DNA of 64,000 nucleotides from Clostridia bacterium (GTDB lineage: Bacteria; Bacillota; Clostridia; Christensenellales; DTU072): assembly GCA_017403145.1 (NCBI GenBank), contig JAFQOO010000010.1, forward strand, positions 96,151 to 160,150, written 5' to 3'. Positions 26,409-42,230 of the stretch are shown piece by piece (the first letter of the stretch is position 1; each line of letters opens with the position of its first letter). A program made the translations under genes and the position numbers. The notes beneath the pieces are model-generated. The model saw only the letters and a list, made by a program, of their open reading frames with translations, had not been told where the DNA came from and did no database searches.

Positions 26409-28628
26409 TCAAAATAGGCGAGCGCATATCATAGAACAATCGTCGCGCTCCTCGGGGGCAATTCTTTCCACGTTAGACATCACCCTTTCGCATATCTCGT
26501 TGGGATTGCGAGTATCAAGCTTCAATAAGATTTCTTCCAAACGTTCCTTACCTAAACCGTCGATAACCCCGTCGGAAAACATAACTATAAAATCTCGTGG
26601 CGTAAGACGTACCGTTTCGGTTATAGGCGTGGCTCCCTCGATTATGCCAAGAGGCAACGAACCGCAAGCTATTTCCTTTATCCCTTCGGGCGAGATAACG
26701 TACCCTTCGCGTGCACCCTGCTTGATAAAATCGACGTCGCCCGTATCGGTATCTATTACCGCGATATCTATCGCGTTAAACTCCTCCTTGTTCCTCACTT
26801 TAAGCATATTGCCCACGCTCTTTAGTACCGTTTCGTGGTTAAAGCCCGCCTTATAAAAGGACTCTATAAGACTCATTGCGCAACTGCTATTTTCACCGGC
26901 CTCTCTTCCGTGTCCCATTCCATCTGCAAGACATAACATTACCTTATGTGAGTTTAGTCGTATTACCGCTTCCTTATCCCCGGACCCGCTAAAGTCCTTT
27001 GCCGATACCCTTTCGCCATATGCTACCCTATACTTCGGCTCTCTTTCCCAAAAGGTTACCACCTCTCCGTTTATACTCTCTTTTTTATCATAAATCCACA
27101 TTGGAGCGCCCATAATTTGGCTAATAGTTTCCCTTAATTTAGGTTTTGATAAATCGCTTTCCCTAACGCTCAAACTTATATGCCCATTATCGAACGCCAT
27201 TATCTCTTTTACGCCAACCCCAACGTCGTTGAAGGCATCTTGTAAACGTTTTTCGAGCGCGGTATCGTATCTGAGCGGAACCCCTGCTTCTACACCCATC
27301 ACCTCTATCACTTCCGCAAGCCCCTCGACTTGCTCTTTGAGTAGCTTTTTGTTTTCGGAAGCCTCTTTGTTTTCTTTTATTTCCTCTTGTTTTTCGTATA
27401 GTACTTCGTTTGCCCTCATAATAAGCTGGTTAAGATTTAGACATCTACTGCTTAAAAAGGGAGAGGCATCCAATATGCTAGCCTTCCCCATTTCTATCGC
27501 CGAGCCCATTAGCTCTTGCACGACGATTTCCGTACCACTCCCACCCAAACTCTTTTTGCACCTTTGGTAATGGGCGCACCTTTTACAAGTTCTATTCACC
27601 ACCTCGATTGCAAGCTCCATTTGGTTAAGACTATACTCCCTATCCTCGCTCGCAAGCGCATAACCAACGTCGTAAAGGGAACGCGATAGGTTGTCTAGCT
27701 TATCCTTTATATCCGCTCTATTTTTATTTATCAAAGAGCGGGTAAGGCTGTCCCCGCCCCTATGAAAACGAGTGTAGATTTTCCTTTTTATTTTTATAGG
27801 TAATGCTAAAGATATCACCGTTGCAAGAGCGGGCGCAATCAAGCCAAGATACTCCCTATCTATAATACTAGCTAGCATCAAAACGCCCTCTAAAACCAGT
27901 GCTATAACTCCGCCAAAGTAAGCGTGTTCTTTTGGGAAAAAATTGGTTATTACTCCTATACCCACCATAAAAGCAAAGCTCTCTATTCCAAAAGGTAATC
28001 CACCCAAGCCTAGGCTTAACCCTACCTCTATTACGTTCAATATCGATAAACAAGGAATAAGGGTGATAAAAAGAATACCTATAAACCAATAAAAGCTAAA
28101 GAAATATATATTCAAGTACTTTAACCCTAGCCCTAAAATTGCTAGGCAAACGCAAAAGGTAGCTCTTTCGAAACGCGACAACTCGTAGTTCAGTTTTTTA
28201 CCTACCACCGCATACACCGCGGTAATAAAAAAATAGGTTAGAGCAAGCGACGTTAATGCTCCGCCTACTAACCTAAAAGCCGACGTCCACTCCTTACTTT
28301 CCACTATCACGCGAGGAACAAGGGAAATAAAGGAATATAATACCGCGTGTAGCTTGCTAATACTTTTTCCAAGCTTATAGTGAACGAATACGGAAACCAG
28401 CACAACTACGATGGGAAAGGCAACGTAAAGCGCTCCCCACAACGAAAAATTGAAAGCAATTCCGCTAGCGAGATAAAGAGGCGCAACAATAAGCATATTT
28501 TGTTTACCCCACAAAAGTGCAAAAAGAAATGCGGACGTAAAAGCATATATGCCCGTTTTACACTCTAAAAAATGCAAAAAAGCAAGTATAATAGCATATA
28601 TAATATATTTGATTATATCATTTTTCAT
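26409..28628 (-). CDS. spoIIE: Stage II sporulation protein E (SpoIIE), membrane PP2C phosphatase
   Basis: About 10 N-terminal TM helices, a central regulator region and a C-terminal PP2C domain (LADGMGHGREAGENS, DIAVIDTDTGDVDFIKQGA, VMFSDGVIDG). Confidence 0.85.
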   Translation of the reverse strand: MKNDIIKYIIYAIILAFLHFLECKTGIYAFTSAFLFALLWGKQNMLIVAPLYLASGIAFNFSLWGALYVAFPIVVVLVSVFVHYKLGKSISKLHAVLYSFISLVPRVIVESKEWTSAFRLVGGALTSLALTYFFITAVYAVVGKKLNYELSRFERATFCVCLAILGLGLKYLNIYFFSFYWFIGILFITLIPCLSILNVIEVGLSLGLGGLPFGIESFAFMVGIGVITNFFPKEHAYFGGVIALVLEGVLMLASIIDREYLGLIAPALATVISLALPIKIKRKIYTRFHRGGDSLTRSLINKNRADIKDKLDNLSRSLYDVGYALASEDREYSLNQMELAIEVVNRTCKRCAHYQRCKKSLGGSGTEIVVQELMGSAIEMGKASILDASPFLSSRCLNLNQLIMRANEVLYEKQEEIKENKEASENKKLLKEQVEGLAEVIEVMGVEAGVPLRYDTALEKRLQDAFNDVGVGVKEIMAFDNGHISLSVRESDLSKPKLRETISQIMGAPMWIYDKKESINGEVVTFWEREPKYRVAYGERVSAKDFSGSGDKEAVIRLNSHKVMLCLADGMGHGREAGENSSCAMSLIESFYKAGFNHETVLKSVGNMLKVRNKEEFNAIDIAVIDTDTGDVDFIKQGAREGYVISPEGIKEIACGSLPLGIIEGATPITETVRLTPRDFIVMFSDGVIDGLGKERLEEILLKLDTRNPNEICERVMSNVERIAPEERDDCSMICARLF

Positions 28629-28635
28629 AACGATA

Positions 28636-28674
28636 TAATAAAATAAAACAAGCCGATTGTTTTGGCTTGTTTTG
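28636..28674 (-). terminator. Rho-independent terminator after signal peptidase I
   Basis: On the minus strand: AAAACAAGCC-aaaacaatc-GGCTTGTTTT followed by ATTTTATTAT. Confidence 0.55.
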
Positions 28675-28700
28675 TCGAGAAGGTGTTATTCGTGTATACT

Positions 28701-29258
28701 CTAGGCGTTGACTCGTTTAACGATAGTCAAATCGCTCAGCAAACCTGCTTTTGCATCGTACCTTAAAATTACTCTACCTAAAATAGAATCCATTTGTCCC
28801 ATCATACCACTTCTTGAGTCTAGTGAATTCATACGATTATCACCGCAAAAATAGAAGCAACCTTCGGGAACCACTCTTTTTTCGTGAGCATCGCTTTCTC
28901 TAGCACGGATATTTCCGCCGAGGTAATTTTCCTCAAGCTTAACGTCGTTAACGAAAATAAAATACGCTGCTCCATCCTTCTTGATTTCAACAGTATCACC
29001 GGGAAGGGCTATTATGCGTTTGATATAATGACTTTCTCCACTTTCCGTTTGCACGTGGGTGTTGAATACGACTATATCTCCGTAACGATAATTACCTTGC
29101 TTATATAGGATAACGTTATCACCGTCTTGAATGGTTTCCGTCATAGAGGTGCCGGATACGGGGATTGTGGTGAACAACCAATTGGAAAGGAAGTATGCGC
29201 CTACAACGCAAACTATCACTAGTAATATATCAACTATAATTTTTGCTACTTTACTCAT
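28701..29258 (-). CDS. lepB: Signal peptidase I (S26A)
   Basis: N-terminal TM anchor. Motifs VSGTSMTETI (catalytic Ser box), YIKRIIALPGDTV (Lys box) and GDNRMNSLDSR. The ATG directly abuts the upstream stop. Confidence 0.9.
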   Translation of the reverse strand: MSKVAKIIVDILLVIVCVVGAYFLSNWLFTTIPVSGTSMTETIQDGDNVILYKQGNYRYGDIVVFNTHVQTESGESHYIKRIIALPGDTVEIKKDGAAYFIFVNDVKLEENYLGGNIRARESDAHEKRVVPEGCFYFCGDNRMNSLDSRSGMMGQMDSILGRVILRYDAKAGLLSDLTIVKRVNA

Positions 29259-30938
29259 CTAAATAAACAATATATTTCCTACTACTATTTGTTTTCCCCT
29301 TATAGAAAGGGCTTTAACGCCATACCAATTTGTTAGTGGCATCAAGTTATCGTCTTTAAAGTCGGTTATCTTCAAACGGGTACCCATAAATAGACCTTTG
29401 GTATTATTAACCGCTATGGTTGCTTTATAGGTTTTACTACCCTCACTAGATACGCCAAGCAAAATTATTTCCGCTTCGGCATCTTCTACTGTGTATAGTT
29501 CCAGTTGTAAAATTCTATCCTTATCGGTGCCTTCCGTAGGACAAAAACGATAGGTTCTCAGTCCGTCGCTATCGCTTGTTAAGCCAACCATTCCCTTTGC
29601 AGTTTCCACTAGGCGCAACGATTTTTCGAATAATACGGTACCGGAATGTTCTTCTACAAAACCGCTTTCTTCTTCTCCTGCTTGATAGATAACGCGCAAG
29701 GTTGCGTTGGCATTCTTAACCTTTTCCTTTACCGGTAAACCTTTGAGGTCGCGGTACTCTACTAGTGAAGAAAGGGATAATCCACTTTCGTATTCTACTA
29801 TAGCATAGGCGAACAAGGGCGCATCTTTGTCGTACTCTACCGCTTCGGCTATATATTCGTTATAGGATACGGACAATCCGTCCGCCTCTCTATAATTGCG
29901 AATTTCGTGGTGATATTCTTTTTCCGCATAGTAAACCACTACCTTCTTTATCATCGAAGAGGGGTCGCAGTCCACGTTAAAAGTGGGAACTCCGCTATCG
30001 CTTACTCTTATTTTAAGCACGGGAGCGGTGGGTAGCTCGTCGGTATTATCGCGCACTACCGCACTAAGCCAAATCATAAGAGTTCTATATGCTTCGGGGA
30101 GCATAAAATCGGTTGCGCGCGGACTTATTGCAATACGAACGTCGTCGTTATCCATAAGTGCTACAAGGTTGGAAAGTCTATCTATATCGCTATTCCTTGC
30201 ATTAGAGCCCAGCGCTATAAAGGTAGGTGCTTTAACGTGTTTTGCATAAGCTACCGAGGCAACGCCCGTTAGCCAACACATACGTTCCTCGTCCATAACC
30301 AACTCTCTTTGCTCGCCATATCGATTTTGCTTTATGTACTCTCTGTACCCCGAACCATTTATGCAAGCAAGTCCGTCTACTTTATCTTGCTCGGTTGCAC
30401 TAACCGCAATAGCAATTTCTACCGCGTCGCCGAGTCCCATAAGAATGAGCTTGCCATCGCTTATCACCCTTTTAACAAAGGTTAAGGTGCGTTTCACGAT
30501 TATGGCATAGAGATATTGGCTGGTTTCTTTTGCGGTGGGCATAACCTTTTTGATATGGTCGCCCGCCTTTTCATAAAGTCCGTACTCAAGGGATGGTGGG
30601 AAAGTGGTTTTGAATTCCCCTACTCCGCTCAAATCGGGAATAACTATGGTATAACCGGCGTTTGCGAGCGCGTGTACTAGTTTTTCATCGGGCGAACGAT
30701 GGTATTCGCCAACCATAACGATGACGGGAGATGCGCTCACGTCTCCCTCTCTACGTAACAAACGGACGGCAACCGTTACGTTGCCGTCGTCTGTTTCTAA
30801 AGCTGTAAAGAGGTGCCTTTCTTCTAAAATATCTTCGCCAACAGTACCGACATAATCGGTTTTGAGGTTACCTAGGGGTAAGCTACCCGCATCGTAACCT
30901 TGCCATATTTGGCTAGGCACCATTACCTTATAGTCCAT
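29259..30938 (-). CDS. Hypothetical protein, N-terminal alpha/beta-hydrolase-like region (no clear GxSxG)
   Basis: 559-aa ORF with no signal peptide. VIVMVGEYH...IVIPDLSGVG...LILMGLGDAVEIA resembles AXE1/DLH-type folds, but the nucleophile position reads G-L-G-D-A. Confidence 0.45.
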   Translation of the reverse strand: MDYKVMVPSQIWQGYDAGSLPLGNLKTDYVGTVGEDILEERHLFTALETDDGNVTVAVRLLRREGDVSASPVIVMVGEYHRSPDEKLVHALANAGYTIVIPDLSGVGEFKTTFPPSLEYGLYEKAGDHIKKVMPTAKETSQYLYAIIVKRTLTFVKRVISDGKLILMGLGDAVEIAIAVSATEQDKVDGLACINGSGYREYIKQNRYGEQRELVMDEERMCWLTGVASVAYAKHVKAPTFIALGSNARNSDIDRLSNLVALMDNDDVRIAISPRATDFMLPEAYRTLMIWLSAVVRDNTDELPTAPVLKIRVSDSGVPTFNVDCDPSSMIKKVVVYYAEKEYHHEIRNYREADGLSVSYNEYIAEAVEYDKDAPLFAYAIVEYESGLSLSSLVEYRDLKGLPVKEKVKNANATLRVIYQAGEEESGFVEEHSGTVLFEKSLRLVETAKGMVGLTSDSDGLRTYRFCPTEGTDKDRILQLELYTVEDAEAEIILLGVSSEGSKTYKATIAVNNTKGLFMGTRLKITDFKDDNLMPLTNWYGVKALSIRGKQIVVGNILFI

Positions 30939-30941
30939 CTT

Positions 30942-33671
30942 TTATTTTTTCTCCATCATACGTTCGATAAACTTTTGGATTTCAACCATAGGAACGATTA
31001 GGAAGGAAGCACCTATTGCTATTAACCATTGTGCCCAATCTAGAGGAACGGTATCGAATATCGTACCGATAGGAGCAATGGATACTACTAAAACTACTAG
31101 CACTACGCCAACCAAGAAAGCAAGGTTGAGGAACTTGTTATCAAACATCTTCTTGTTGAAGAGTGATTGAGATTGGCTCTTTAGGTTGAAGCTGTGGAAT
31201 AGTTGGATGAAGCATAGGGTTACGAATGCCATAGTTTCGCTAACTGCGTGGGTTGCACCATTTCTTTCGAAGTACAAGAAACCTACTAGGAAGCTTCCCA
31301 TAACGAGTGCGGTTTGCATTATACCTTGGATAATGATATCAACACCGGTCTTACCGGCAAACAAGCTTGAACCCGATTTTCTAGGCGGATATTCCATAAC
31401 GTTAGCTTCGGCTTTTTCCATACCAAGAGCAAGAGCGGGTAGCGAGTCGGTAACCATATTTACCCACAGTATCATAACGGGGGTTAGGAATACTAGTTGT
31501 CCTTCGCTCTCTGCAAGCAAATCGGGATTTACTGCGTTAACTATAGTCGAAATTACAACAACGCTTAGGAACAAGCAAAGAACTTCTGCGATATTTGCAG
31601 AGAGCAAATATTGTATTGCCTTCTTGATATTTGCATAAACCTTTCTACCTTCTTCAACTGCGCTAACGATGGTAGCAAAGTTGTCGTCGGCAAGAACCAT
31701 ATCACTAGCGCCCTTACTTACGTCGGTGCCGGTGATACCCATACCGATACCTATATCGGCTTTCTTGATGGAAGGAGCATCGTTAACACCGTCGCCGGTC
31801 ATTGCTACTACCTTACCAAGTGAACGATATGCACAAACGATTCTAACCTTATTTTCGGGAGAAACACGAGCGTATACGCGATATCTATCGATATTAGCCA
31901 TATATTCTTCTTCGCTCATCTTGTCTAGCTCTGCACCGGTTAGAACTTCTTGGTCGGGACTATCGATTATGCCAACCTCTCTAGCGATTGCAGCAGCGGT
32001 CTTTGCGTGGTCGCCGGTAATCATTATAGCGCGGATACCTGCTTTCTTACAGGTTGCAACAGCTGCCTTAACTTCATCACGAGCGGGGTCTATCATACCG
32101 GTTAGACCTACGAAAATCAAATCTTCTTCGAACTTTTCTCTATCTTCTTCGTTTAGCTTGATAGCATATGCGAGTACACGGAGTGCTTTTTCCGCCATAT
32201 CACCGTTTGCCTTGAGAACGTTTTCTTTATCTTCTTCGGTGATTGCACGAACTTGTCCGTCTACCCAAATAGAACTACATCTGTTTAGTAGAATATCGGG
32301 AGCGCCCTTAACGTGGATGATTTTTTCGCCATCAACGTCGTTTACGGTGCTCATAAGCTTACGTTTACTATCAAAAGGAATTTCGTCAACACGAACGTAT
32401 TTTGCGCTCATATCGAGGTCTTTCTTTCTTGCATAGGCTACGAGTGCGGTTTCGGTGGGGTCGCCTACGAGCTTGCCTTCGCTTTCTTGAGTGTCGTTAC
32501 ACAAGGTCATTACGCGAATAAGAGTGTTAACGTCGCCTGCTACTTCGTCGCTGTCGGTAATGATACCGCCACTAGTGGTATATAACTCTTTAACGGTCAT
32601 TTGGTTAAGAGTGATGGTACCGGTCTTGTCGGAGCAAATAATTTCACAGCAACCAAGAGTTTCAACTGCGGGAAGGTTTCTAACGATAGCCTTTCTTTCA
32701 CTCATTCTTTGAACGCCGATAGCAAGAACGATGGTAACAACTGCAGGTAGACCTTCGGGTATAGCGGCAACTGCGATTGCAACTGCGGTCATAAAGGATT
32801 CTACTATGCTACCGCCGAATTCTTGCCAATCGGTAACCTTCCAACCGGAGGTGGAAAGTACGATAAGAATACTTGCTAGGAATATAACTGCCGCGATGCC
32901 TAGAACTGCAACGGATAGTAATTTTGCAGTCTTTGCAAGTTGTATTTGAAGGGGAGTGGTATTGTCGGTTTTTTCGTTAAGCATCTTAGCGATTTTACCT
33001 ACCTCGGTATCCATACCGGTTGCGGTAACAACGCCTTCGCCTCTACCAAAAGAAACGGTACCACTACTAAAAGCCATACAAGCGCGGTCGCCAAGAGGGG
33101 CTTCCTCGTTGGTGAGTGCGTTGGTGTGCTTGTTAACGGGAACCGATTCACCGGTAAGAGCAGCTTCTTCTATTTGTAAAGAAGAGCACTTGATAAGACG
33201 CATATCGGCGGGAACCATATCGCCTGCTTCGAGAACAACGATATCACCTACTACCAATTCTTCCGAGGAAATCTTTTCAAGATTGCCTTCACGGATAACT
33301 TTAGCAAAGGGCTTGTTCATATTCTTTAGAGCTTCGAGCGATTTTTCCGCTTTACCCTCTTGAACAAGACCTATAATCGCGTTAACTACAACGATTAGTA
33401 GGATAAGTCCGCTATCGATAAGGTCGCCGTAGTTCTTTTCGATGATAGAAAGAACACCCGATACCAAAGCGGCAACTAGTAGAACGATAATCATAAGGTC
33501 TTTGAATTGGTCAAGGAACCTCAAAATCATCGGGCGCTTTTTAGCTTCGTCAAGAGCGTTTTTACCATTTGCTTCAAGACGAGCTTTTGCTTCGGACGAA
33601 GTTAAACCGGAGGGAGTGGATTTCACCTCTTGTAAAACTTCTTCTACTTCACTCGTGTAGAATTGTTTCAT
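30942..33671 (-). CDS. Calcium-translocating P-type ATPase (type IIA/IIB, YloB-like)
   Basis: ICSDKTGTITLN, IPEGLPAVVT, KGAPD, MITGDH and GDGVNDAPSIKKADIGIGMG, plus an N-terminal cation_ATPase_N (LTSSEAKARLEANGKNAL). The ATG at 33671 (MKQFY) has GAGGAA upstream; the GTG at 33683 would contain that SD. Confidence 0.9.
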   Translation of the reverse strand: MKQFYTSEVEEVLQEVKSTPSGLTSSEAKARLEANGKNALDEAKKRPMILRFLDQFKDLMIIVLLVAALVSGVLSIIEKNYGDLIDSGLILLIVVVNAIIGLVQEGKAEKSLEALKNMNKPFAKVIREGNLEKISSEELVVGDIVVLEAGDMVPADMRLIKCSSLQIEEAALTGESVPVNKHTNALTNEEAPLGDRACMAFSSGTVSFGRGEGVVTATGMDTEVGKIAKMLNEKTDNTTPLQIQLAKTAKLLSVAVLGIAAVIFLASILIVLSTSGWKVTDWQEFGGSIVESFMTAVAIAVAAIPEGLPAVVTIVLAIGVQRMSERKAIVRNLPAVETLGCCEIICSDKTGTITLNQMTVKELYTTSGGIITDSDEVAGDVNTLIRVMTLCNDTQESEGKLVGDPTETALVAYARKKDLDMSAKYVRVDEIPFDSKRKLMSTVNDVDGEKIIHVKGAPDILLNRCSSIWVDGQVRAITEEDKENVLKANGDMAEKALRVLAYAIKLNEEDREKFEEDLIFVGLTGMIDPARDEVKAAVATCKKAGIRAIMITGDHAKTAAAIAREVGIIDSPDQEVLTGAELDKMSEEEYMANIDRYRVYARVSPENKVRIVCAYRSLGKVVAMTGDGVNDAPSIKKADIGIGMGITGTDVSKGASDMVLADDNFATIVSAVEEGRKVYANIKKAIQYLLSANIAEVLCLFLSVVVISTIVNAVNPDLLAESEGQLVFLTPVMILWVNMVTDSLPALALGMEKAEANVMEYPPRKSGSSLFAGKTGVDIIIQGIMQTALVMGSFLVGFLYFERNGATHAVSETMAFVTLCFIQLFHSFNLKSQSQSLFNKKMFDNKFLNLAFLVGVVLVVLVVSIAPIGTIFDTVPLDWAQWLIAIGASFLIVPMVEIQKFIERMMEKK

Positions 33672-33701
33672 TATTTTCCTCACAAAATATATAGTTTTTT
33701 G

Positions 33702-35168
33702 TTATTTTCCGTATTTAGCTTGTAGCCTCTTTTTATTTTCCGCTACGTTTTTTGCATTTCTTAGTTGCGTTTTATCCCACGCATTGCCGAAAAACCTTAT
33801 TAACGTTGCCAATTTTTTGAAAATATTCGGGTCTGCATCGTTTATTTTAACACACTTTATACCTAGATTGTCAATAATCTTACTATTATATTTTACGCGC
33901 GCACGGAAATCTTTATAATCGTCGTGATAAGGACTCCACCCTCTTTCCGCAGTAGCGAGCAATCTTGGGAAGGTTTGACGGTCTATATCGGCATCGCATT
34001 TTACGTACTCACACCATAACGGGGCCTCTACTCCCAAAATATTTTCGGTCTTTTCCACACCCTCGATTTCGGGATTGAGACTGAATGCTTTTTTTAGAGA
34101 GGTTAAACCATATGGATAATCTAAATAATAGTTAAAAAAGGGACTAATTATACCTTTTTTACCACGATTTATTTCTCTTATTGCAGCTTCCTTGTTGACG
34201 GGGGAATATTGCCAATAGTGCACAATTATACTTTCGTGCACGTTTTCACCTACCATTCCATCATTCCAATTTATTACGGTTTTTCCGTTTTCTAAACAAA
34301 ACTCGGCTAGTTTAGCCATAAAATGAGCTTGTAGCTCGTCTTCATTTTTGAGCCCGTTTTCCGCCATTTCACGTTGGCAATCGGGACAATCCAGCCAATG
34401 CAAACGCAATGCTTCGTCGCCACCCAAGTGAATCAACTCAAAGGGGAAGATTTCGAACATTTCCTTTAGAACGTCTTTACAAAACTCTACGCTACTTTCC
34501 TTACCCGCACAAAGCACCTCGGGATGTATGCCAAAGCTATCTTTAACCTCGATTTTAGTACCGAAGCAGTCCAAATGCGGATAGGCACTAATAGCGGCTG
34601 CGGTATGTCCGGGGATATCAAATTCGGGAAGAACTTGCATATGATAACCCTTGCAATACTCCACTATCTCGCGCATTTCCTCTTTGGTATAGTAACCGTG
34701 TACCGGTTTACCATCTCCTCTGGTTCCGTCGCGATAAGATGCTAGCTCGGTTAAAAGAGGATACTTGTCCACCTGCACGCGCCAGCCCTGGTCGTCGGTC
34801 AAATGCCAATGGAAGACGTTAATTTTAAATCTTGCAACCGCATCTATTATCCTCTTGATGCTATCTATCGAGTGAAAATGCCTAGCGCAGTCCAGCATAT
34901 ATCCCCTATAGGAATATCTGGGATAATCCACTATTTCACAGTGAGGCAAATCACCTAGCTCCATCAAATTGCGAAGGGTTACTTTTGCATAATAAAATCC
35001 GTCGTCGTCGCTTGCCTTAACGGTTATACCCGTGCTATCTATACTAAGCACGTATCCACTCTTGTTTATGGAATCGTCGCGTAGTTCGCGCACGTTGTCC
35101 ATAGTGTAGTTAAAGGTAGCGTCGGAAAGTATATTTTCTTTAACGGGCTTTGGAATAATGGGTAACAT
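33702..35168 (-). CDS. GH20 beta-N-acetylhexosaminidase
   Basis: MLDCARHF, NVFHWHLTDDQGWR and HLGGDE. I see no N-terminal signal peptide. Confidence 0.9.
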   Translation of the reverse strand: MLPIIPKPVKENILSDATFNYTMDNVRELRDDSINKSGYVLSIDSTGITVKASDDDGFYYAKVTLRNLMELGDLPHCEIVDYPRYSYRGYMLDCARHFHSIDSIKRIIDAVARFKINVFHWHLTDDQGWRVQVDKYPLLTELASYRDGTRGDGKPVHGYYTKEEMREIVEYCKGYHMQVLPEFDIPGHTAAAISAYPHLDCFGTKIEVKDSFGIHPEVLCAGKESSVEFCKDVLKEMFEIFPFELIHLGGDEALRLHWLDCPDCQREMAENGLKNEDELQAHFMAKLAEFCLENGKTVINWNDGMVGENVHESIIVHYWQYSPVNKEAAIREINRGKKGIISPFFNYYLDYPYGLTSLKKAFSLNPEIEGVEKTENILGVEAPLWCEYVKCDADIDRQTFPRLLATAERGWSPYHDDYKDFRARVKYNSKIIDNLGIKCVKINDADPNIFKKLATLIRFFGNAWDKTQLRNAKNVAENKKRLQAKYGK

Positions 35169-35170
35169 AA

Positions 35171-35905
35171 CTATTCTCCTATACTATAACTTGATTGGGG
35201 TACTACAAAGTCGCTCTCTCCGTTGGATATCGAACCGCTTTGAACACTTATGGTACCCGAACTGCTTGGTTTAGTTGCTTTAACATTCAATATTGTGTCT
35301 CCGTCGTTTATGCAGTCGTAACCGCTTTCCGAGTAAACTACCACTACCATAGAGCTAACGGAAACCGAGTATATTTCCATTTTAAAAGCGCTTGTTAACT
35401 TGAGGGTGGGCTCGCTTAGAACAATTCCGCCCGAGGTGGAAAGAGTAAATCTAAGAGCATATACTCCACCGCTAACCGTGCTTGCCTTATCTGCCTTTAT
35501 ATCGACGTCGTAACCGGTCTTACTTTCGTTTTCTACCACACCAATATTAAACCTAAATGAAGTTTCTACCGAAAGAGAGCTTTGTACCTTGTAAATATAG
35601 TTGGCACTCTTGCCTTTATAGGTAACGGAAAGCGTTCTACCCGTCGTAGTAGTCGAGGTATCAAAGCCACTAACCATACCCTCGGTAATACTTATGCTTG
35701 CAGTAGAGCCATCGGTATAGGTAACGAGTATTTTGGATGCGCTTAGGTTCAATTTTTCATCTAGCGCGTAAATTTCCTTGAACGAACCTTGTATTATTTG
35801 AATGGAAGATACCGCTTTTTCTTTGTTACAAGCAGTAAGCATACATACGAATACTAGGCAAAGGAGTATCACCGTTATTATCGTTCTAATATTTTTCTTA
35901 TTCAT
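35171..35905 (-). CDS. Lipoprotein with one Ig-like (Big_3-type) domain and a C-terminal cohesin-like domain
   Basis: Lipobox LLCLVFVCMLTAC. Ig-like domain KILVTYTDGSTASISITEGMVSGFD...TLSVTYKGKSANYIYKV. The C-terminal ~125 aa show a cohesin-like strand pattern. The start overlaps the upstream stop by 8 nt (ATGAATAA). Confidence 0.7.
   Translation of the reverse strand: MNKKNIRTIITVILLCLVFVCMLTACNKEKAVSSIQIIQGSFKEIYALDEKLNLSASKILVTYTDGSTASISITEGMVSGFDTSTTTTGRTLSVTYKGKSANYIYKVQSSLSVETSFRFNIGVVENESKTGYDVDIKADKASTVSGGVYALRFTLSTSGGIVLSEPTLKLTSAFKMEIYSVSVSSMVVVVYSESGYDCINDGDTILNVKATKPSSSGTISVQSGSISNGESDFVVPQSSYSIGE
35210..35593 (-). other. Cohesin-like module of the lipoprotein (inferred)
   Basis: FRFNIGVVENESKTGYDVDIKADKASTVSGGVYALRFTLSTSGG...SMVVVVYSESGYDCINDGDTILNVKATKPSSSGTISV. 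This parallels the type I cohesin pattern (V.I.V......G..V.VPV......GI....F.L.YD......IVFLF.D.....I..DGVFA.I.FKVK). By-eye comparison only. Confidence 0.4.
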
Positions 35906-38900
35906 TGACGTCCTCCCTGCTCTTTAGTCTAGAAGGTGTAGCTATAATGGTGCGAGCTACGTCGCTTACAGGCACTTGCTTAGGACTTGCACCGCTAGCT
36001 TCTCTAGCATATTTTACAAGGTCGGTTAGGTTGCTCTTGCCATCTCCGTTATAGTCCATAACCTCGTCTTTAGCGGTACCGTTTGCAAGCATTCCCGCCA
36101 TACCTGATAGGTCTTCGGCATTTACCTTACCATCTCCGTTAACGTCGCCCTTGACGTATATGGTAAATACGAATACCTCTTGCCCTTCGCTGTTGACGAA
36201 TATAAGTTTATCACCCGTACCCGCACTCTTGTTCACGTTGTCGTTTGGTAACAAGTTGCCGAGCTTAACGCTACTATAGTTTGCGCTTAGATAATCGCTA
36301 ACCTTTACCGAGCCCAAAACGTCGCCTATGGTTGTTGTCGCGTCGAATGCGATTTGACGTTTGGATACGTTTACCTTGTATCCTTCGCCACTAACCTCTG
36401 CTACCGCTTGACTTTCTCTAGTAACGTTAATATTGAAGAAAGCACTTTGGCTACCGCTGGAAACGGTAACTCTTTGTTGGCCGGATATTAGAGTGCTATA
36501 GGATATCGTAAGGTTTTTCTTTATATCTTCCGCCTCGTAGCTAACTACACCCGCCGCCGCATAGGTTACGTTAACCCTTGCGCCCGTCCAACTTATAACG
36601 TCGCCGAACCCATAACTTACACGGTTAGGTACGTTAGCGATGCTTATGCTTGTAACGGTATCGATAACCTCTACGTTATAGGTAGTGGTATAGGTCTTTT
36701 CGTTATAAACGTAGGAAACGGTTATTTCTTGCTTACCAACCTTATTGGGATTGTAGCTGGTAGAGTAATCGCTTCTGCCTAACGTTTGGCTCCTTGATTC
36801 CTTTGCGTAATATACTCTAACGGAAATACTTAGTGCCTCGCCATAGGTGTACTCACTCTTGGAGCTAGCGCTAACCACTTCGAGTTTGGTTACAAAGTCG
36901 GGCACGATGCAACCACCGCTCCATACCAAGAAGGGTGATTCTACGCCCTCTCCAACGTAATAGATATATACGTATTGAGCGCGACCTACCGTTTCCATAG
37001 AGGAATTGAATTCGGGGGTATAGTAAAAGTCTTCTTCGTTATAGGGAACTATAGTTGTCGCTCCGCTAATCATAGTTATAACGTAGGTGGAGGTAGGATT
37101 AAACTTATCGCCTACTGCATATTCGGTTTTGGGCTTATCCTTGATTGCAATGCTCTTGAACGCATCGCCTACTACTAGCTTGAACGAGGTGCTTAAAGTA
37201 TTATCAAGCGCATAAGAAACGGTTATGGTTTGCGTACCTACCACCAAGTTTGAATAACTAGAAACGATATACTCCGTATTCTCTAAAAGCATTCTTCCGC
37301 TACGAGCGTATAACGCATATACGTCGAACGTTACTTTTTCACCCCATAGTATACTTACGTCCGCAATACTATCAAGCGACACTACGTAGTCGACTATGCA
37401 AATTTCCAACTCTAGCCACTCGCCAAGATATCTTGCTTTTAGGGTTTGTTTACCTATCAGTTCGCTATTATATACTATTTCCATTGGTTCTATTATCTCT
37501 TTAGAACCATCGGTCAAGGTCTTTTCAAGTTGGATATCTAGGTTGTTTTCATCTCCGTTTATAACGTGTCCGTACTTATATTCCGTTACCGCGCCCTCTT
37601 TAATCTTTACCGAAGTAGTAGGCTCAAGGGGAGATGCGTTGATAGAAAGACTCCATACCTCTATGGTAACCACGCTTAGCGAGTTACCCGATATCGTTTG
37701 ACGATTTACAAATATCTTTATTAGTGCGTTTTGAACGTCGTCCAAAGTGTTATCAAATGGAATCAAGGTTTCGCCCATAGTGTAAAGACTATAATAAATA
37801 TTATCACTTGCACTTTGGTATTTATTGATTTCAACGTCCTTTACACCTTGTTGAACGAGAGTGATGCCTATATATGGGTCTTTGCCCTTTTCATAATAGT
37901 AGCATAGGGTGTCTTCCTGTCTACCTACTACCTTGAATTCTCCCGCGATATCAACGTTAATTGCGGTTGTCGTACTCTTTTCTTCCTCGGTTTCGGGGTC
38001 AACGTAGCTTATTTTTACTTGGTGAGTACCCACTCTCAAGCTATAAAGTGCGTATAAGGGAGAGCTTTGGTCGCTTACCTCGGTGTGTTCGTCCTTTATC
38101 ATACACTCTATCAACTGTACTTGGCGCGTAGCTCCGCTTACCATATGAACGTCTACGAATTCGTGGCGGTCTATTTCCTCACCATACATATACGAGGTGC
38201 GGAGGGGTTGGAATGATATACTATTAACGTAATCAACTACGGTTATCTCTTCTTCGAAGGTAAATATCGTGCCCCAAGTGCCATCGGTATAGGTATATAT
38301 AACCTTTTGAACGCCAATAACGTCCTTGCGATAGCCGGAGTAATTGGTTGCGGTAAACTTATTGGGGCCTTCCACCTCTCCGGAAGCTTTATAAACCTTG
38401 AAGCCACCGCTTTCGGCGTCTAGGTCGTAATTATATAAATATCTCTTGGTGGGCTCGCTAACCTTTTCTACCCCCACTACGTAGTCTTTTACCGATACGG
38501 TGAAAGTAGTGGTAATTCCCATATAGGTTACGGTCAGCGTTTGATATTTAGAAGTCTTATCGGTTGCATCGTAGCCCGATATCATATCTTCCGTCATAAC
38601 GACGTTTTCCACGTTGGTACCGATAGTAACTTTCAAAAGATATCTAGAAGGGTCCAACGCCTCGCCATAGCGATATTGGGTAGAACCACCGTTCAAATCG
38701 ACTTCTATCTTGCTTACCGCACCAACAATAGTAACTACTATTTCGGCACTAAATCCTGCCGCTTCGGCGGTGATAGTCGCCTTTTGTCCTATGCTACCTA
38801 CCGCGTGAATTAAGCCCGCCTCGTTTACCGTGATAATGCTATCGTTAGATGAAGTAAAGATGGGAACAAGTGAGCCATAGGTTCCGTCTTCTGGTAGGAA

Positions 38901-41900
38901 TATAACGGATAAATATGCCCTTTCGCCTTCTAGAATACTTCTAGCTTCTTCGGTAAACGCAATGCCTTCAAGAGGCTTTTCTTCGAAAACTTCTATTGTT
39001 GCAAGATACGTTATGTCCGTTCCGTTGGCTTTTACGGTCAAGATTGCGGTTCCTACCTCGTTCGCAGTAATAGTTGCGGTATCCCTATCGGTAGCTTCTA
39101 CGCTTGCAATCGCGGTGTTACTAGAACTAAACAACATTCTAATATAGGTAGCGTTCGTGGGAAGGAAGGTAACTCCGCCTATTGAAACGGTGTTTCCCTT
39201 TGCCACTCTTATTTTGCCACCGGATATTCCCGTCATTCCAGTAATAGAGGTTAACTCAACGTAATTGGAATATAGCAAGTTGCCTACTCCTTCGTTTGTG
39301 CAATACTTGGTAGAGCCCGTGCCTCTATACTCCACTACACCATCTTCGCGTAGGAATGCACTATGATATTCGCCCGCTGCAACGTCGATAATATCGTACA
39401 ATTCCTCCACGTTGCATTGTCCGTAGGAATTATCACCTGTTGCAATAACCTTGCCCTCTTCGGTGATAGCTACAATATGATGAGTGCCTGCGGAAACCTT
39501 TTTAACGCCACTAAAAGCAGTCAAATCCGCGCTCGGTAAAGTACCCGCTATTTGCACGCTTCCGTCGTTCTTGAGGGCGACAAGATAGTTTAGACCTACC
39601 CCTATTTGTTTTACGTTGGTAAGGGTGCTAATCGTGGCTTTTTCGCTTTCGGTAAAGTTACCGGCAACCACAACTTCACCGGTAATGGTTAGTCCAGCCA
39701 CCCTCTTGCCCATAGCGGAAATAGCTTGTATACCGCTCCAAGAGGATACTTCTAGTTGTTGCTTATCGTTAAGTCCCGTTACAACCACCGTTCCATTGGT
39801 CTTTAGTCCGTAGCTACAATAGGTGCCCGCCGCCACCGCCTTAACGTCGTACCAAGAGGATACTTGGGTTTCGCTATAGTTATCATCGCCAACAGCTATA
39901 ACGTTAAGGGATTGAGTGAGCAATAAGGTATGAGTATATCCTAGAGCAACTGCGGTAACTCCGTCGATATCCTCTATATCCCATTGTCCCGTACCAAAAT
40001 TACCGCTTGCATCCACCTTTCCGTCGCGCTTAACGCCTACCGTCATTCTGGTAGAAGCGGATATAGAAGCTTTTAGCTCGGTTTTGGCGTTCACAATAGT
40101 ATCCCAACCGATGTTGGCACTATCGCTAACCGGTATTTCATCGATTACTTTGCTGTCTCCGTCGGCGTCAACAATCTTCAACACAGCGGTTACGGGCGCA
40201 TCGTCCCTAAGGAATGCTCCGTATGAGAATAGACCTGCAACCGGGTCGTTGCCCTTATCTGCATATATAAATTGACATAACGATTCTCTCGTTCCACCAT
40301 TATATTCTGCAAGGAATCTACCCAAATTCATATTATTTGTAACAATCGTGTTGCCATCTCTGTTACGAAGCTCTACTTGTAGAGCGGATAAATATTGGGG
40401 GTTTAGGCTATTGTACTTTAGGTTTACAGCAACGCCTGCGTATGCGGTAGAGTTAACCAGCTCTGCCGATTTTAGCGAAATTCTATCGTCGAAATATCCA
40501 TCGCTAACCATATCTTGACCGAGCTTGACGTTGAACTCTATGCTATCTTCACTTATAGAAAGGGCTTCTATTATAATATCGCTATTGGTTCCGTCGCTGT
40601 AATATATGGTTTCGGGGTCGTATAAACCTAGAGAAACGGTCTTACCTAATTTGGAATAATATTGATTATTGGGCGAAAGATATGCGTAATCGATATCGTA
40701 ACGACTGTTGTTATAACGGTCGGAAACGAAAAGCTCGTTACCCGTCATTTTAATGGAGGGACGGAATACGAAAACCTCGTCGGCCTTATTGCCCGTACCT
40801 CTATAAACTGCGTCCATATTACCGCGAGAATTACTAAAATCGCTTGGTTCTTTAATTCTATAAATTATAAGACCGCTTCCCGGTAGCAACGAGTCGTATC
40901 CGGAAGAGGTAACTTTACGATATTCCACCATAAAGTATTCGTTTTTCGAAGTGGGAATTTTATAAGCAATAACGTCGTTTTCACCGGTTTGAGTAACGGG
41001 TTTAAGGGAATACGTTCCGTTTTCGCTGATGGAGCCTATTTGACTATCCGCAATACCGCCTATATAATTTTTACGCATATATGCTAAAAGATATTGGGGT
41101 GTTTTCAAATCTATTTCCATCAAGTCCCACTTACCTACCGTAATGATATCTTGGTTTTGGGTTGTTGAACCATAGTGATACAAGTCGGGAGCGCCAAGAA
41201 CGTGAGCTGTTTCGTGGCAAAGCACGCCGAGAGTAATATCGTCGGAGAAGTTAAAGGAATATTTACCAACCTTTTTACCATTTACGGTAGTATAGTTATT
41301 ATCTCCGTCAACAGCATCAAGGTTTACGCTATGAGGCCATAGCAACGAGCCCCAAACCGAGCTCGATTTTCCGTGAACTATTATGGATACCGAATCTATA
41401 TAACCATCTCCGTTAACGTCAAGGTTGGTTCCGCTAGAGAATGAATAATGCTCTTTGGCACTGTTTATCGCATTGGATACTAAAGAAACCTCTCTTGCCC
41501 AGCGAGCATTGCCATCGGTATTATAATAATCACGTCTTTGACTATCTTGATAAACGTAAACTGCACCGTAATCGTTATAGGCTATTTGGGAATGAATGTT
41601 TACCCTATCGTTGCTTATATCTTGATAATAACTCTTCAAAGAGGTGTTTGAACCATTAAAAGTATTGATTAAACTGGTGCTGGGAACAAATTCTTCCCCA
41701 TAGAAGGATATAAAAATGGTTAGGTTTGTAATGGATACGTAATTGGTTCCGCTTGCAAGCACAGGGTCGGTTTCTATAATGGTCATACCATCTAGACCTT
41801 GCATACCTTCTTGCACTTCGGGGTGTGATAAATCGATATCGCTTCCAAGCATTCTAACGATTTTTGATAGCGCTTTAGCATCGCTACCATAGCTTACACC

Positions 41901-42230
41901 GCTTGGAGAGGGCTTTCCTCCCTCGTTTACAGCATATTCGAGAGTTCCCTTGTCTTCGTCTTTAACAAGCACGTAGCCCTCGTTATCGTGGGCGTAGGAA
42001 TAATACTCGTTACCGCTTTCGTAGTAATATGCGGTTTTACCCGAAGCAAGCTCCATTTCGCGTAAGAAGGTAAATTCACCATAGTCGTAGTTTTGCTTCA
42101 ATTCCCCCGCTTCCACTACTTTATCCACGTTAAAATCTACACAAACCAAAGCTATGGCACATAGCACCATAACCAAACAAACTATCAAAATTTTCCCGTT
42201 AAATCTTGTCTTTTTCATATCCTTTTTCAT
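35898..42230 (-). CDS. 2,110-aa secreted multidomain protein: signal anchor, M6 (InhA-like) metalloprotease domain, RCC1 repeats, Big_2 and Big_3-type Ig repeats, C-terminal dockerin
   Basis: TM/signal ILIVCLVMVLCAIALVCV. Zinc site CHETAHVLGAPDLYH (codons at ~41216). RCC1-like blades (GYTHTLLLTQ..., AGTYCSYGLKTNGTVVVTG, AGTHHIVAITEEGKVIATGDNSYGQC, AGEYHSAFLREDGVV). Big_2 (ATITANEVGTAILTVKA; ATITAEAAGFSAEIVVTI). At least 7 Big_3-like units (...QTLTVTYMGITTTFTVSV...). Dockerin at the C-terminus. Confidence 0.85.
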   Translation of the reverse strand: MKKDMKKTRFNGKILIVCLVMVLCAIALVCVDFNVDKVVEAGELKQNYDYGEFTFLREMELASGKTAYYYESGNEYYSYAHDNEGYVLVKDEDKGTLEYAVNEGGKPSPSGVSYGSDAKALSKIVRMLGSDIDLSHPEVQEGMQGLDGMTIIETDPVLASGTNYVSITNLTIFISFYGEEFVPSTSLINTFNGSNTSLKSYYQDISNDRVNIHSQIAYNDYGAVYVYQDSQRRDYYNTDGNARWAREVSLVSNAINSAKEHYSFSSGTNLDVNGDGYIDSVSIIVHGKSSSVWGSLLWPHSVNLDAVDGDNNYTTVNGKKVGKYSFNFSDDITLGVLCHETAHVLGAPDLYHYGSTTQNQDIITVGKWDLMEIDLKTPQYLLAYMRKNYIGGIADSQIGSISENGTYSLKPVTQTGENDVIAYKIPTSKNEYFMVEYRKVTSSGYDSLLPGSGLIIYRIKEPSDFSNSRGNMDAVYRGTGNKADEVFVFRPSIKMTGNELFVSDRYNNSRYDIDYAYLSPNNQYYSKLGKTVSLGLYDPETIYYSDGTNSDIIIEALSISEDSIEFNVKLGQDMVSDGYFDDRISLKSAELVNSTAYAGVAVNLKYNSLNPQYLSALQVELRNRDGNTIVTNNMNLGRFLAEYNGGTRESLCQFIYADKGNDPVAGLFSYGAFLRDDAPVTAVLKIVDADGDSKVIDEIPVSDSANIGWDTIVNAKTELKASISASTRMTVGVKRDGKVDASGNFGTGQWDIEDIDGVTAVALGYTHTLLLTQSLNVIAVGDDNYSETQVSSWYDVKAVAAGTYCSYGLKTNGTVVVTGLNDKQQLEVSSWSGIQAISAMGKRVAGLTITGEVVVAGNFTESEKATISTLTNVKQIGVGLNYLVALKNDGSVQIAGTLPSADLTAFSGVKKVSAGTHHIVAITEEGKVIATGDNSYGQCNVEELYDIIDVAAGEYHSAFLREDGVVEYRGTGSTKYCTNEGVGNLLYSNYVELTSITGMTGISGGKIRVAKGNTVSIGGVTFLPTNATYIRMLFSSSNTAIASVEATDRDTATITANEVGTAILTVKANGTDITYLATIEVFEEKPLEGIAFTEEARSILEGERAYLSVIFLPEDGTYGSLVPIFTSSNDSIITVNEAGLIHAVGSIGQKATITAEAAGFSAEIVVTIVGAVSKIEVDLNGGSTQYRYGEALDPSRYLLKVTIGTNVENVVMTEDMISGYDATDKTSKYQTLTVTYMGITTTFTVSVKDYVVGVEKVSEPTKRYLYNYDLDAESGGFKVYKASGEVEGPNKFTATNYSGYRKDVIGVQKVIYTYTDGTWGTIFTFEEEITVVDYVNSISFQPLRTSYMYGEEIDRHEFVDVHMVSGATRQVQLIECMIKDEHTEVSDQSSPLYALYSLRVGTHQVKISYVDPETEEEKSTTTAINVDIAGEFKVVGRQEDTLCYYYEKGKDPYIGITLVQQGVKDVEINKYQSASDNIYYSLYTMGETLIPFDNTLDDVQNALIKIFVNRQTISGNSLSVVTIEVWSLSINASPLEPTTSVKIKEGAVTEYKYGHVINGDENNLDIQLEKTLTDGSKEIIEPMEIVYNSELIGKQTLKARYLGEWLELEICIVDYVVSLDSIADVSILWGEKVTFDVYALYARSGRMLLENTEYIVSSYSNLVVGTQTITVSYALDNTLSTSFKLVVGDAFKSIAIKDKPKTEYAVGDKFNPTSTYVITMISGATTIVPYNEEDFYYTPEFNSSMETVGRAQYVYIYYVGEGVESPFLVWSGGCIVPDFVTKLEVVSASSKSEYTYGEALSISVRVYYAKESRSQTLGRSDYSTSYNPNKVGKQEITVSYVYNEKTYTTTYNVEVIDTVTSISIANVPNRVSYGFGDVISWTGARVNVTYAAAGVVSYEAEDIKKNLTISYSTLISGQQRVTVSSGSQSAFFNINVTRESQAVAEVSGEGYKVNVSKRQIAFDATTTIGDVLGSVKVSDYLSANYSSVKLGNLLPNDNVNKSAGTGDKLIFVNSEGQEVFVFTIYVKGDVNGDGKVNAEDLSGMAGMLANGTAKDEVMDYNGDGKSNLTDLVKYAREASGASPKQVPVSDVARTIIATPSRLKSREDVNE
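35997..36149 (-). other. Type I dockerin module (two EF-hand-like Ca2+ loops)
   Basis: GDVNGDGKVNAEDLSGMAGMLANG...MDYNGDGKSNLTDLVKYAREA: a duplicated DxNxDGxxxxxD loop plus helix. Confidence 0.75.

Follow-up and report, generated by a model that had tools for sequence, protein, structure and literature searches.

A putative lipid-anchored, single-cohesin lipoprotein encoded together with a dockerin-bearing M6 metalloprotease in Clostridia from animal gut metagenomes

The window analysed in this study is a 64-kb stretch of DNA (64,000 nucleotides, nt) from contig JAFQOO010000010.1 of a Clostridia bacterium, and all coordinates below are positions within it. On its minus strand, two overlapping genes encode a 2,110-amino-acid (aa) protein with an M6 metalloprotease domain, RCC1 repeats, immunoglobulin (Ig)-like domains and a C-terminal dockerin, and a 244-aa lipoprotein. 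With moderate confidence, the 244-aa protein is interpreted here as a minimal, lipid-anchored, one-cohesin anchoring scaffoldin for the dockerin-bearing M6 protease, and the pair probably forms a one-to-one tether that would keep the protease at the cell membrane. The interpretation draws on the domains of both proteins, the predicted fold of the C-terminal module of the lipoprotein, the coupling of the two genes and their strict co-inheritance. The features that carry the argument are the following.

35171-35905, minus strand: open reading frame (ORF) of the lipoprotein, 244 aa, with a Big_3 domain as presumed stalk and a cohesin-like module
35174-35572, minus strand: cohesin-like beta-sandwich module, about aa 112-244 of the lipoprotein, from AlphaFold2 and Foldseek, with no cohesin sequence match
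35597-35779, minus strand: Big_3 Ig-like domain of the lipoprotein, aa 43-103, from Pfam
35828-35839, minus strand: lipobox L-T-A-C, aa 23-26 of the lipoprotein, read from the sequence, with an invariant Cys26
35898-42230, minus strand: ORF of the large multidomain protein, 2,110 aa, with orthologues at the same position in 15 loci
35997-36152, minus strand: dockerin of the large protein, aa 2027-2078, two F-hand calcium loops each followed by a helix, from PF00404 and in all 15 loci
35901-35996, minus strand: C-terminal tail following the dockerin, 32 aa, SPKQVPVSDVARTIIATPSRLKSREDVNE, from the C-terminus alignment and the DNA
35898-35905, minus strand: start/stop overlap of the two genes, ATGAATAA, 8 nt, read from the sequence
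35911-35918, minus strand: Shine-Dalgarno sequence AGGGAGGA of the lipoprotein gene, lying within the large gene, read from the sequence

The C-terminal module of the lipoprotein has a predicted cohesin fold. The AlphaFold2 model of the lipoprotein, which was built on an 18-sequence alignment, had a mean predicted local distance difference test (pLDDT) score of 86, with values of approximately 85-95 in the module part, and placed 9-10 strands between aa 118 and 242. This predicted structure agrees with the cohesin fold, a nine-stranded flattened beta-sandwich jelly-roll of approximately 140 aa. When the model was compared with the Protein Data Bank (PDB) by Foldseek, the five best matches (E 5e-7 to 2e-5) were all non-cellulosomal cohesins of Clostridium perfringens, namely chains A-C of 2jh2, 2w1n and 2vo8. 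The three chains of 2jh2 aligned over approximately 130 columns with E values of 5e-7 to 2e-6, target template-modelling scores of 0.72-0.78 and root-mean-square deviations (rmsd) of 2.6-2.8 A. The next cohesins were 2o4e and the cellulosomal or archaeal entries 6kgd, 5nrk, 4uyp, 5lxv, 2vn5, 5n5p, 2xdh and 1g1k; more than 15 cellulosomal cohesins followed the top five, and at least 20 cohesin entries reached a Foldseek probability of 1.00. The single-domain matches were filled by cohesins, and not by carbohydrate-binding modules (CBMs) or other sandwiches. The other good matches were either 4fdw, 4fd0 and 2l7y, which fell on the Big_3 domain, or adhesins and integrins, on which two domains superposed only loosely, at an rmsd of more than 10 A. 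The conserved residues of the module lie mainly on strands 3, 6 and 8 of the model (G147, Y149, A150 and F153; S192 and G195; Q222, S225, S227 and G229). The face with which cohesins bind dockerins is made up of strands 8-3-6-5, and the conserved strands of the module would correspond to it.

The large protein ends in a type I dockerin duplication, as the original prediction had read from the translation. Dockerin_1 (PF00404), which had been proposed as a check, matched aa 2027-2072 with 34.2 bits against a gathering cut-off of 22.9 (E 2.9e-8), and type I dockerins in the PDB (6kge, 1daq and 2mte) matched the dockerin with E values of 4e-4 to 2e-3. The two calcium-loop segments are DVNGDGKVNAEDL and DYNGDGKSNLTDL; their loops, DVNGDGKVNAED and DYNGDGKSNLTD, both have D or N at positions 1, 3, 5, 9 and 12, and the spacing between the loops is 30 aa, at the short end for type I dockerins. 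The duplicated segments were retained in all 15 loci, and they were conserved unequally. Segment 2 was nearly invariant (NLTD[LI]V, then an aromatic and a basic residue, as in NLTDLV.YAR), while in segment 1 positions 8-11 varied freely across loci. Enzyme-borne type I dockerins typically, though not by definition, have two near-symmetric segments and can thereby bind in two modes. The present dockerin lacks such symmetry in its conservation, unlike the dual-mode dockerins with symmetric segments that many cellulosomal enzymes carry. Since one segment is nearly fixed and the other drifts, the dockerin probably binds in a single orientation through its second helix. The 32-aa tail that follows the dockerin was also conserved within the genus in the C-terminus alignment. 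A homologue search with the dockerin and its tail returned one 159-aa fragment only, and this result has no bearing on other dockerin carriers.

The two genes were inherited together across deep divergence. Fifteen distinct loci were examined, comprising the window and L001-L009, L011, L013, L015, L016 and L017, from Candidatus Stercoripulliclostridium and relatives; the window itself stems from a Candidatus Stercoripulliclostridium-like clostridium of animal gut metagenomes. Dockerins and modules were counted in each locus by scanning all six frames with a dockerin-loop pattern and a hidden Markov model (HMM) of the module. In 15 of 15 loci there was exactly one dockerin to one module, always adjacent, and the gene order was the M6/RCC1/dockerin gene, directly followed by the lipoprotein gene and then, in the loci whose sequence reaches that far, by a gene for a GH20 (glycoside hydrolase family 20) enzyme. 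The orthologous large proteins are M6/RCC1 proteins of 2,046-2,125 aa that terminate in a dockerin. The pairing persisted at module identities of approximately 25-35% to the module of the window and at whole-lipoprotein identities down to approximately 31%. Furthermore, it persisted despite a changed upstream neighbour: L013 lacks the giant gene that lies upstream in the window, and L002 has an extra gene inserted. The lipoprotein family is narrow, with about 30 clusters of 237-247 aa and one architecture. Searched exhaustively with phmmer, 1.84 billion representatives yielded 10 matches, which consisted of eight proteins of 237-246 aa, one 108-aa fragment and one spurious 727-aa protein. A profile search of 5.8 billion proteins recovered the same module family alone, with no bridge to cohesins. 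This 727-aa protein (P0028), which was matched in 4 stretches, was considered as a multi-cohesin scaffoldin and was rejected, given its Gly/Asp-rich repeats and weak low-complexity matches.

Several observations weigh against the interpretation of the lipoprotein as a cohesin-bearing anchor. The Pfam Cohesin profile PF00963 found no match in the lipoprotein at E<=1 or in 20 family members at E<=10; a profile of the module retrieved no cohesin from the PDB sequences; and hhalign against three CipA cohesins (sequence verified against 1aoh, 3kcp and 2ccl) gave a probability of 0.5% and an E value of 0.12. At 8-16%, the identity to cohesins in the structural matches is low, and similar beta-sandwiches can arise by convergence. 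On the side of the partner, an AlphaFold2 model that was built from two sequences for aa 1960-2110, the part with the dockerin, had a pLDDT of 38 and was unusable, and the helices of the dockerin are visible solely in this low-confidence model. A better cohesin partner may be encoded elsewhere in the genome, each related genome being represented by a piece of approximately 20 kb. Finally, the large protein has an N-terminal hydrophobic segment of its own, which may already anchor it.

Because all sequence tests were negative, the assignment to the cohesins rests on the predicted fold and the gene context. The original prediction had read the C-terminal part of the lipoprotein as cohesin-like from its strand pattern, had placed it at 35210-35593, and had named the absence of both a cohesin HMM match and structural similarity as grounds for abandoning the idea. 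The cohesin-like fold was borne out in the model, where the similarity to cohesin structures is clear, and the PF00963 search proposed as a check gave no match. The domain itself is real, with an extent now placed at approximately 35174-35572, so that it runs past 35210 to the C-terminus.

The same negative results would also suit a different reading, in which the module, as a generic beta-sandwich, has another ligand, such as a glycan, a wall polymer or the substrate of the protease, the lipoprotein is an accessory substrate-binding or adhesion factor, and the dockerin either uses another cohesin or is only a calcium-stabilised element. The modest Foldseek E values (5e-7 at best), the low identities and the room that the genome beyond the window leaves for another cohesin are in keeping with it, as is the frequent occurrence in genomes of orphan dockerins that have no recognisable cohesin (Peer et al. 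2009, as cited in PMC13487519). However, a generic sandwich would not be expected to draw its single-domain structural matches from the cohesins, nor would an accessory factor explain why the module family was found only beside a dockerin protein, with one of each per locus. Moreover, no other cohesin was detected within the 64-kb window or in the flanks of the 15 loci, and a Pfam scan of every remaining ORF of substantial size in the window, including the giant ORF, detected no further cohesin or dockerin. We therefore consider the generic-sandwich explanation unlikely, although it deserves serious weight.

The arrangement of the two genes indicates that their translation is coupled. The large gene ends in ...GTC AAT GAA TAA, and the ATG of the lipoprotein gene lies inside that end. 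The 8-nt stop/start overlap described in the original prediction is present as ATGAATAA at 35898-35905, with the Shine-Dalgarno sequence 5 nt upstream of the ATG. The stretch 35901-35925 serves twice: it ends the protease gene (...S R E D V N E) and provides the Shine-Dalgarno sequence and start codon of the lipoprotein gene. The overlap was identical in 8 of 10 loci compared, and the remaining two have a 1-nt gap; the gene pairs of L011, L013, L015, L016 and L017 also overlap. Across the 15 loci the overlap is mostly 8 nt, and otherwise 4, 10 or 14 nt or replaced by a 1-nt gap. The orthologous protease genes keep a K/R-E-E/D-like ending, which is consistent with dual coding constraints, and part of the conservation of the 32-aa tail is attributable to the last codons of the large gene, because these also hold the Shine-Dalgarno sequence and start codon of the next gene.

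A small lipoprotein that is so tightly coupled in translation to a large secreted protease, in a conserved 1:1 gene pairing, could also be a maturation factor, chaperone or inhibitor that acts on the M6 catalytic part and not through a cohesin-dockerin contact. Couplings of this kind are typical of protease/foldase and protease/inhibitor pairs. Nevertheless, the module has no similarity to known foldases or inhibitors, and such a role would leave both the cohesin-like fold and the strictly conserved partner dockerin unexplained; we regard it as quite improbable. The adjacency could, in addition, be without functional meaning, with a shared operon as the only link and a coincidental resemblance in fold, and the operon does hold apparently unrelated genes (for GH20 and a P-type ATPase). 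Against this, the pair, the overlap and the dockerin were kept in 15 loci over deep divergence while flanking genes varied, which makes mere adjacency the least probable of the explanations weighed here.

As a putative anchoring scaffoldin, the lipoprotein has its lipobox as its only anchor. Its N-terminus, MNKKNIRT-IITVILLCLVFVCM-LTAC, has a basic n-region, a hydrophobic core and a lipobox, in line with the criterion applied (basic n-region, hydrophobic h-region and [LVI][ASTVI][GAS]C within the first ~35 residues). The lipobox of the original prediction was thus recovered at aa 23-26, and Cys26, at which the mature protein would begin and carry its lipid, was invariant in 21 homologues; the variants among them, LTAC, LSAC, LSGC, FSAC and LASC, were all taken to fit the pattern. 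No S-layer homology (SLH) or other wall-binding domain was found in the lipoprotein by Pfam, and no LPXTG motif is present at its C-terminus (...SSYSIGE). Between the lipobox and the module lies the Big_3 domain, a presumed stalk or spacer, with 28 bits against a cut-off of 21.2 (E 2.7e-6); it matches PDB entries 4fdw and 4fd0 both by sequence and by Foldseek. The same kind of domain in the large protein scored 37 bits in 2 stretches, which agrees with the earlier statement that both proteins share it. The NCBI label of the identical protein MBQ4073438.1 is 'bacterial Ig-like domain-containing protein'.

On these grounds, the following mechanism may be proposed. The lipoprotein would be exported by Sec and processed by Lgt and Lsp, so that Cys26 becomes lipidated, and the Big_3 domain would serve as a short stalk. 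The cohesin-fold module would then bind, with the help of Ca2+, the dockerin at the C-terminus of the upstream-encoded M6/RCC1/Ig protease (2,110 aa). The 8-nt overlap and the internal Shine-Dalgarno sequence would couple translation, so that the partners are made at the same site and in a ratio of approximately 1:1. The protease would thereby stay in the wall or on the outside of the membrane, and would not be released.

The X82 modules of C. perfringens were recognised as cohesins by structure and not by sequence. According to PMC12997984, these modules, formerly classed as X82, are single cohesins on glycoside hydrolases that build enzyme complexes. They (2jh2, 2o4e, 2w1n and 2vo8) include the nearest structures to the present module and resemble the present case in having one cohesin per protein, in being non-cellulosomal and in belonging to a gut- or host-associated clostridium. 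They differ in residing on large glycoside hydrolases (GH84 and GH33) and in joining enzyme to enzyme, whereas the protein described here is a 244-aa non-catalytic lipoprotein and its cargo would be an M6 protease. Furthermore, there is no detectable sequence similarity: a HMMER search with the module against PDB sequences matched no X82 cohesin of C. perfringens, and the structural identity is 13-16%.

The anchoring scaffoldins of cellulosomes comprise the SLH type (SdbA, OlpB and Orf2p), the sortase type (ScaE) and variants with LysM or a C-terminal transmembrane segment. A 2024 genome survey of such anchors lists SLH, LPXTG, LysM and C-terminal transmembrane forms and never mentions lipoproteins (PMC11557425). 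No lipoprotein-anchored cohesin was found in the literature searched, the coverage of which was partial, so that absence is unproven. Like an anchoring scaffoldin, the present non-catalytic protein would combine a cohesin with an envelope anchor that retains a dockerin partner. Unlike those scaffoldins, its anchor is an N-terminal lipobox with no SLH, LPXTG or other wall-binding module, it would bind the enzyme directly and not a primary scaffoldin, and its module has no Pfam Cohesin match.

Two further systems are comparable. In Cellulosilyticum lentocellum, the adjacent genes of ClcC and ClcD encode a single-cohesin protein with a divergent cohesin and a dockerin enzyme, which form a 1:1 complex (PMC13487519). 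Both cases consist of two adjacent genes with one cohesin and one dockerin, the complex being a proposal in the present one. ClcC has a CBM3 and targets a GH5 cellulase to cellulose, whereas here the destination would be the membrane and the cargo an M6 protease; moreover, the cohesin of ClcC is recognisable by sequence and the present module is not. The mucinolysome of Limousia includes several dockerin-bearing peptidases (PMC12997984) and represents, as the system proposed here would, cohesin-dockerin assembly for non-cellulose substrates in Clostridia of the animal gut. It belongs to another genus and has multi-cohesin scaffoldins, a sortase-anchored base and many dockerin enzymes per genome, whereas here there is a single dedicated pair.

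Non-cellulosomal cohesin-dockerin pairs are already well established, and the general principle is therefore familiar and not a new kind of system. The present case would differ in four respects: its putative cohesin family is invisible to profiles, its sole anchor is a lipobox, its cargo would be an M6/RCC1 protease, and the overlap of the two genes is conserved. If the interaction is true, it would add a third anchoring mode for cohesin-dockerin systems on Gram-positive cells, with a lipid beside SLH and sortase. It would also mean that cohesins exist beyond the current HMMs, and that Pfam-based cohesin counts miss single-pair systems and mislabel their dockerins as orphans. Furthermore, a compact, dedicated 1:1 pair of approximately 135 aa and 60 aa could be used as an orthogonal surface-display tag.

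The remaining features of the large protein and the third gene of the cluster are given below.

42138-42194, minus strand: N-terminal hydrophobic segment of the large protein, about aa 13-31, ILIVCLVMVLCAIALVCV, after a basic n-region, read from the translation
40857-41717, minus strand: M6 (InhA-type) metalloprotease domain, aa 172-458, from TIGR03296
41184-41216, minus strand: zinc-binding active-site motif HETAHVLGAPD (HEXXHXXGXXD), aa 339-349, from a motif search
39300-39632, minus strand: RCC1-like beta-propeller repeats, best Pfam stretch aa 867-977, from RCC1_2 and WD40_RLD
36687-36863, minus strand: one Big_3 Ig-like domain of the large protein, aa 1790-1848, from Pfam
33702-35168, minus strand: gene of the GH20 beta-N-acetylhexosaminidase, from Pfam Glyco_hydro_20 (E 3e-95)

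The domain order of the large protein is a signal peptide or signal anchor, the M6 domain, the RCC1 repeats, the Ig-like domains and the C-terminal dockerin. The N-terminus, as read from the translation, may be a Sec signal peptide or else a signal anchor that stays uncleaved. The M6/InhA-type protease and the RCC1 repeats reported earlier for this ORF were both found: TIGR03296 scored 116.6 bits against a cut-off of 110.8, and RCC1_2 matched in 4 stretches (E 2.9e-25), with repeats reaching past aa 867-977. WD40_RLD also matched (E 1.4e-18), and Big_2 scored slightly under its cut-off. The zinc site is intact and, by motif search, was kept in 11 orthologous loci. The M6 immune-inhibitor-A (InhA) proteins of Bacillus, of approximately 800 aa, share the catalytic domain and the HEXXHXXGXXD motif with the present protein, which at 2,110 aa differs by its RCC1 propeller, many Ig domains and a dockerin. 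To our knowledge, InhA proteins have not been described with dockerins. If the tether is real, the locus also draws attention to a very large and so far uncharacterised protease at the surface of a little-known genus of the animal gut.

The linked GH20 gene and the gut habitat allow the speculation that host or dietary glycoproteins are the substrate of the protease. In a bolder proposal, which is a long shot, the module would found a sequence-orphan, one-partner, lipid-anchored type of cohesin, and the tethered protease would act at the membrane surface on products of its own neighbourhood, for example by cutting the giant protein described below at its [VA]QNA linkers, which would make the locus a self-contained surface-assembly machine and not a nutrient degrader.

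The GH20 gene starts 2 nt past the stop of the lipoprotein gene and was present in every locus with sequence there. The GH20 protein starts with MLPIIPKPVKEN... and has no signal peptide; a cytoplasmic GH20 enzyme is thus tightly co-transcribed with two exported proteins. Directly after it, at 30942-33683 on the minus strand, lies a gene for a cation ATPase of the P2 type, whose Cation_ATPase_N and Cation_ATPase_C domains are those usual in Ca2+ pumps. This position was kept in L001, L002 and L017 and probably in L011, where the gene is truncated and unannotated, and not in L013; it is conceivable that the ATPase is tied to the calcium needs of the dockerin. A conserved downstream block (26409-30938, minus strand) encodes an uncharacterised 559-aa protein that Pfam does not match, together with a type I signal peptidase (S26) and SpoIIE. 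At 19456-26292 on the minus strand, one 2,278-aa ORF comprises AddB (ADDB_N and a PD-(D/E)XK nuclease) and AddA (UvrD helicase N and C domains). It looks like an AddB-AddA fusion, or is possibly an assembly or frame artefact; in L002, AddB (1,098 aa) is encoded by a gene of its own.

Upstream of the protease gene, and separated from it by 142 nt, is the giant ORF (42373-63996, minus strand), which runs off the end of the window. It encodes at least 7,207 aa, and its orthologues in L001, L002 and L011 have 9,357-9,501 aa. Its only Pfam match was a borderline CarboxypepD_reg-like match near aa 3286. The giant ORF was considered as a cohesin carrier and rejected, none being found by Pfam or by the module HMM; it was also rejected as an obligate partner of the pair, since L013 lacks it upstream and in L002 a further gene stands between it and the pair. 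The giant protein contains the motif [VA]QN[AV] at positions 812, 817, 1111, 1496, 1877, 2515, 2858 and 6055, that is, 8 times against 0.29 expected from composition. The motifs are mostly situated inside Gly/Glu/Asp-rich low-complexity linkers, such as GTEGEVQNAGAQNANGG, GGEGEAQNVAITPE and VESGVQNAGEEASDED, and could be linker or processing sites.

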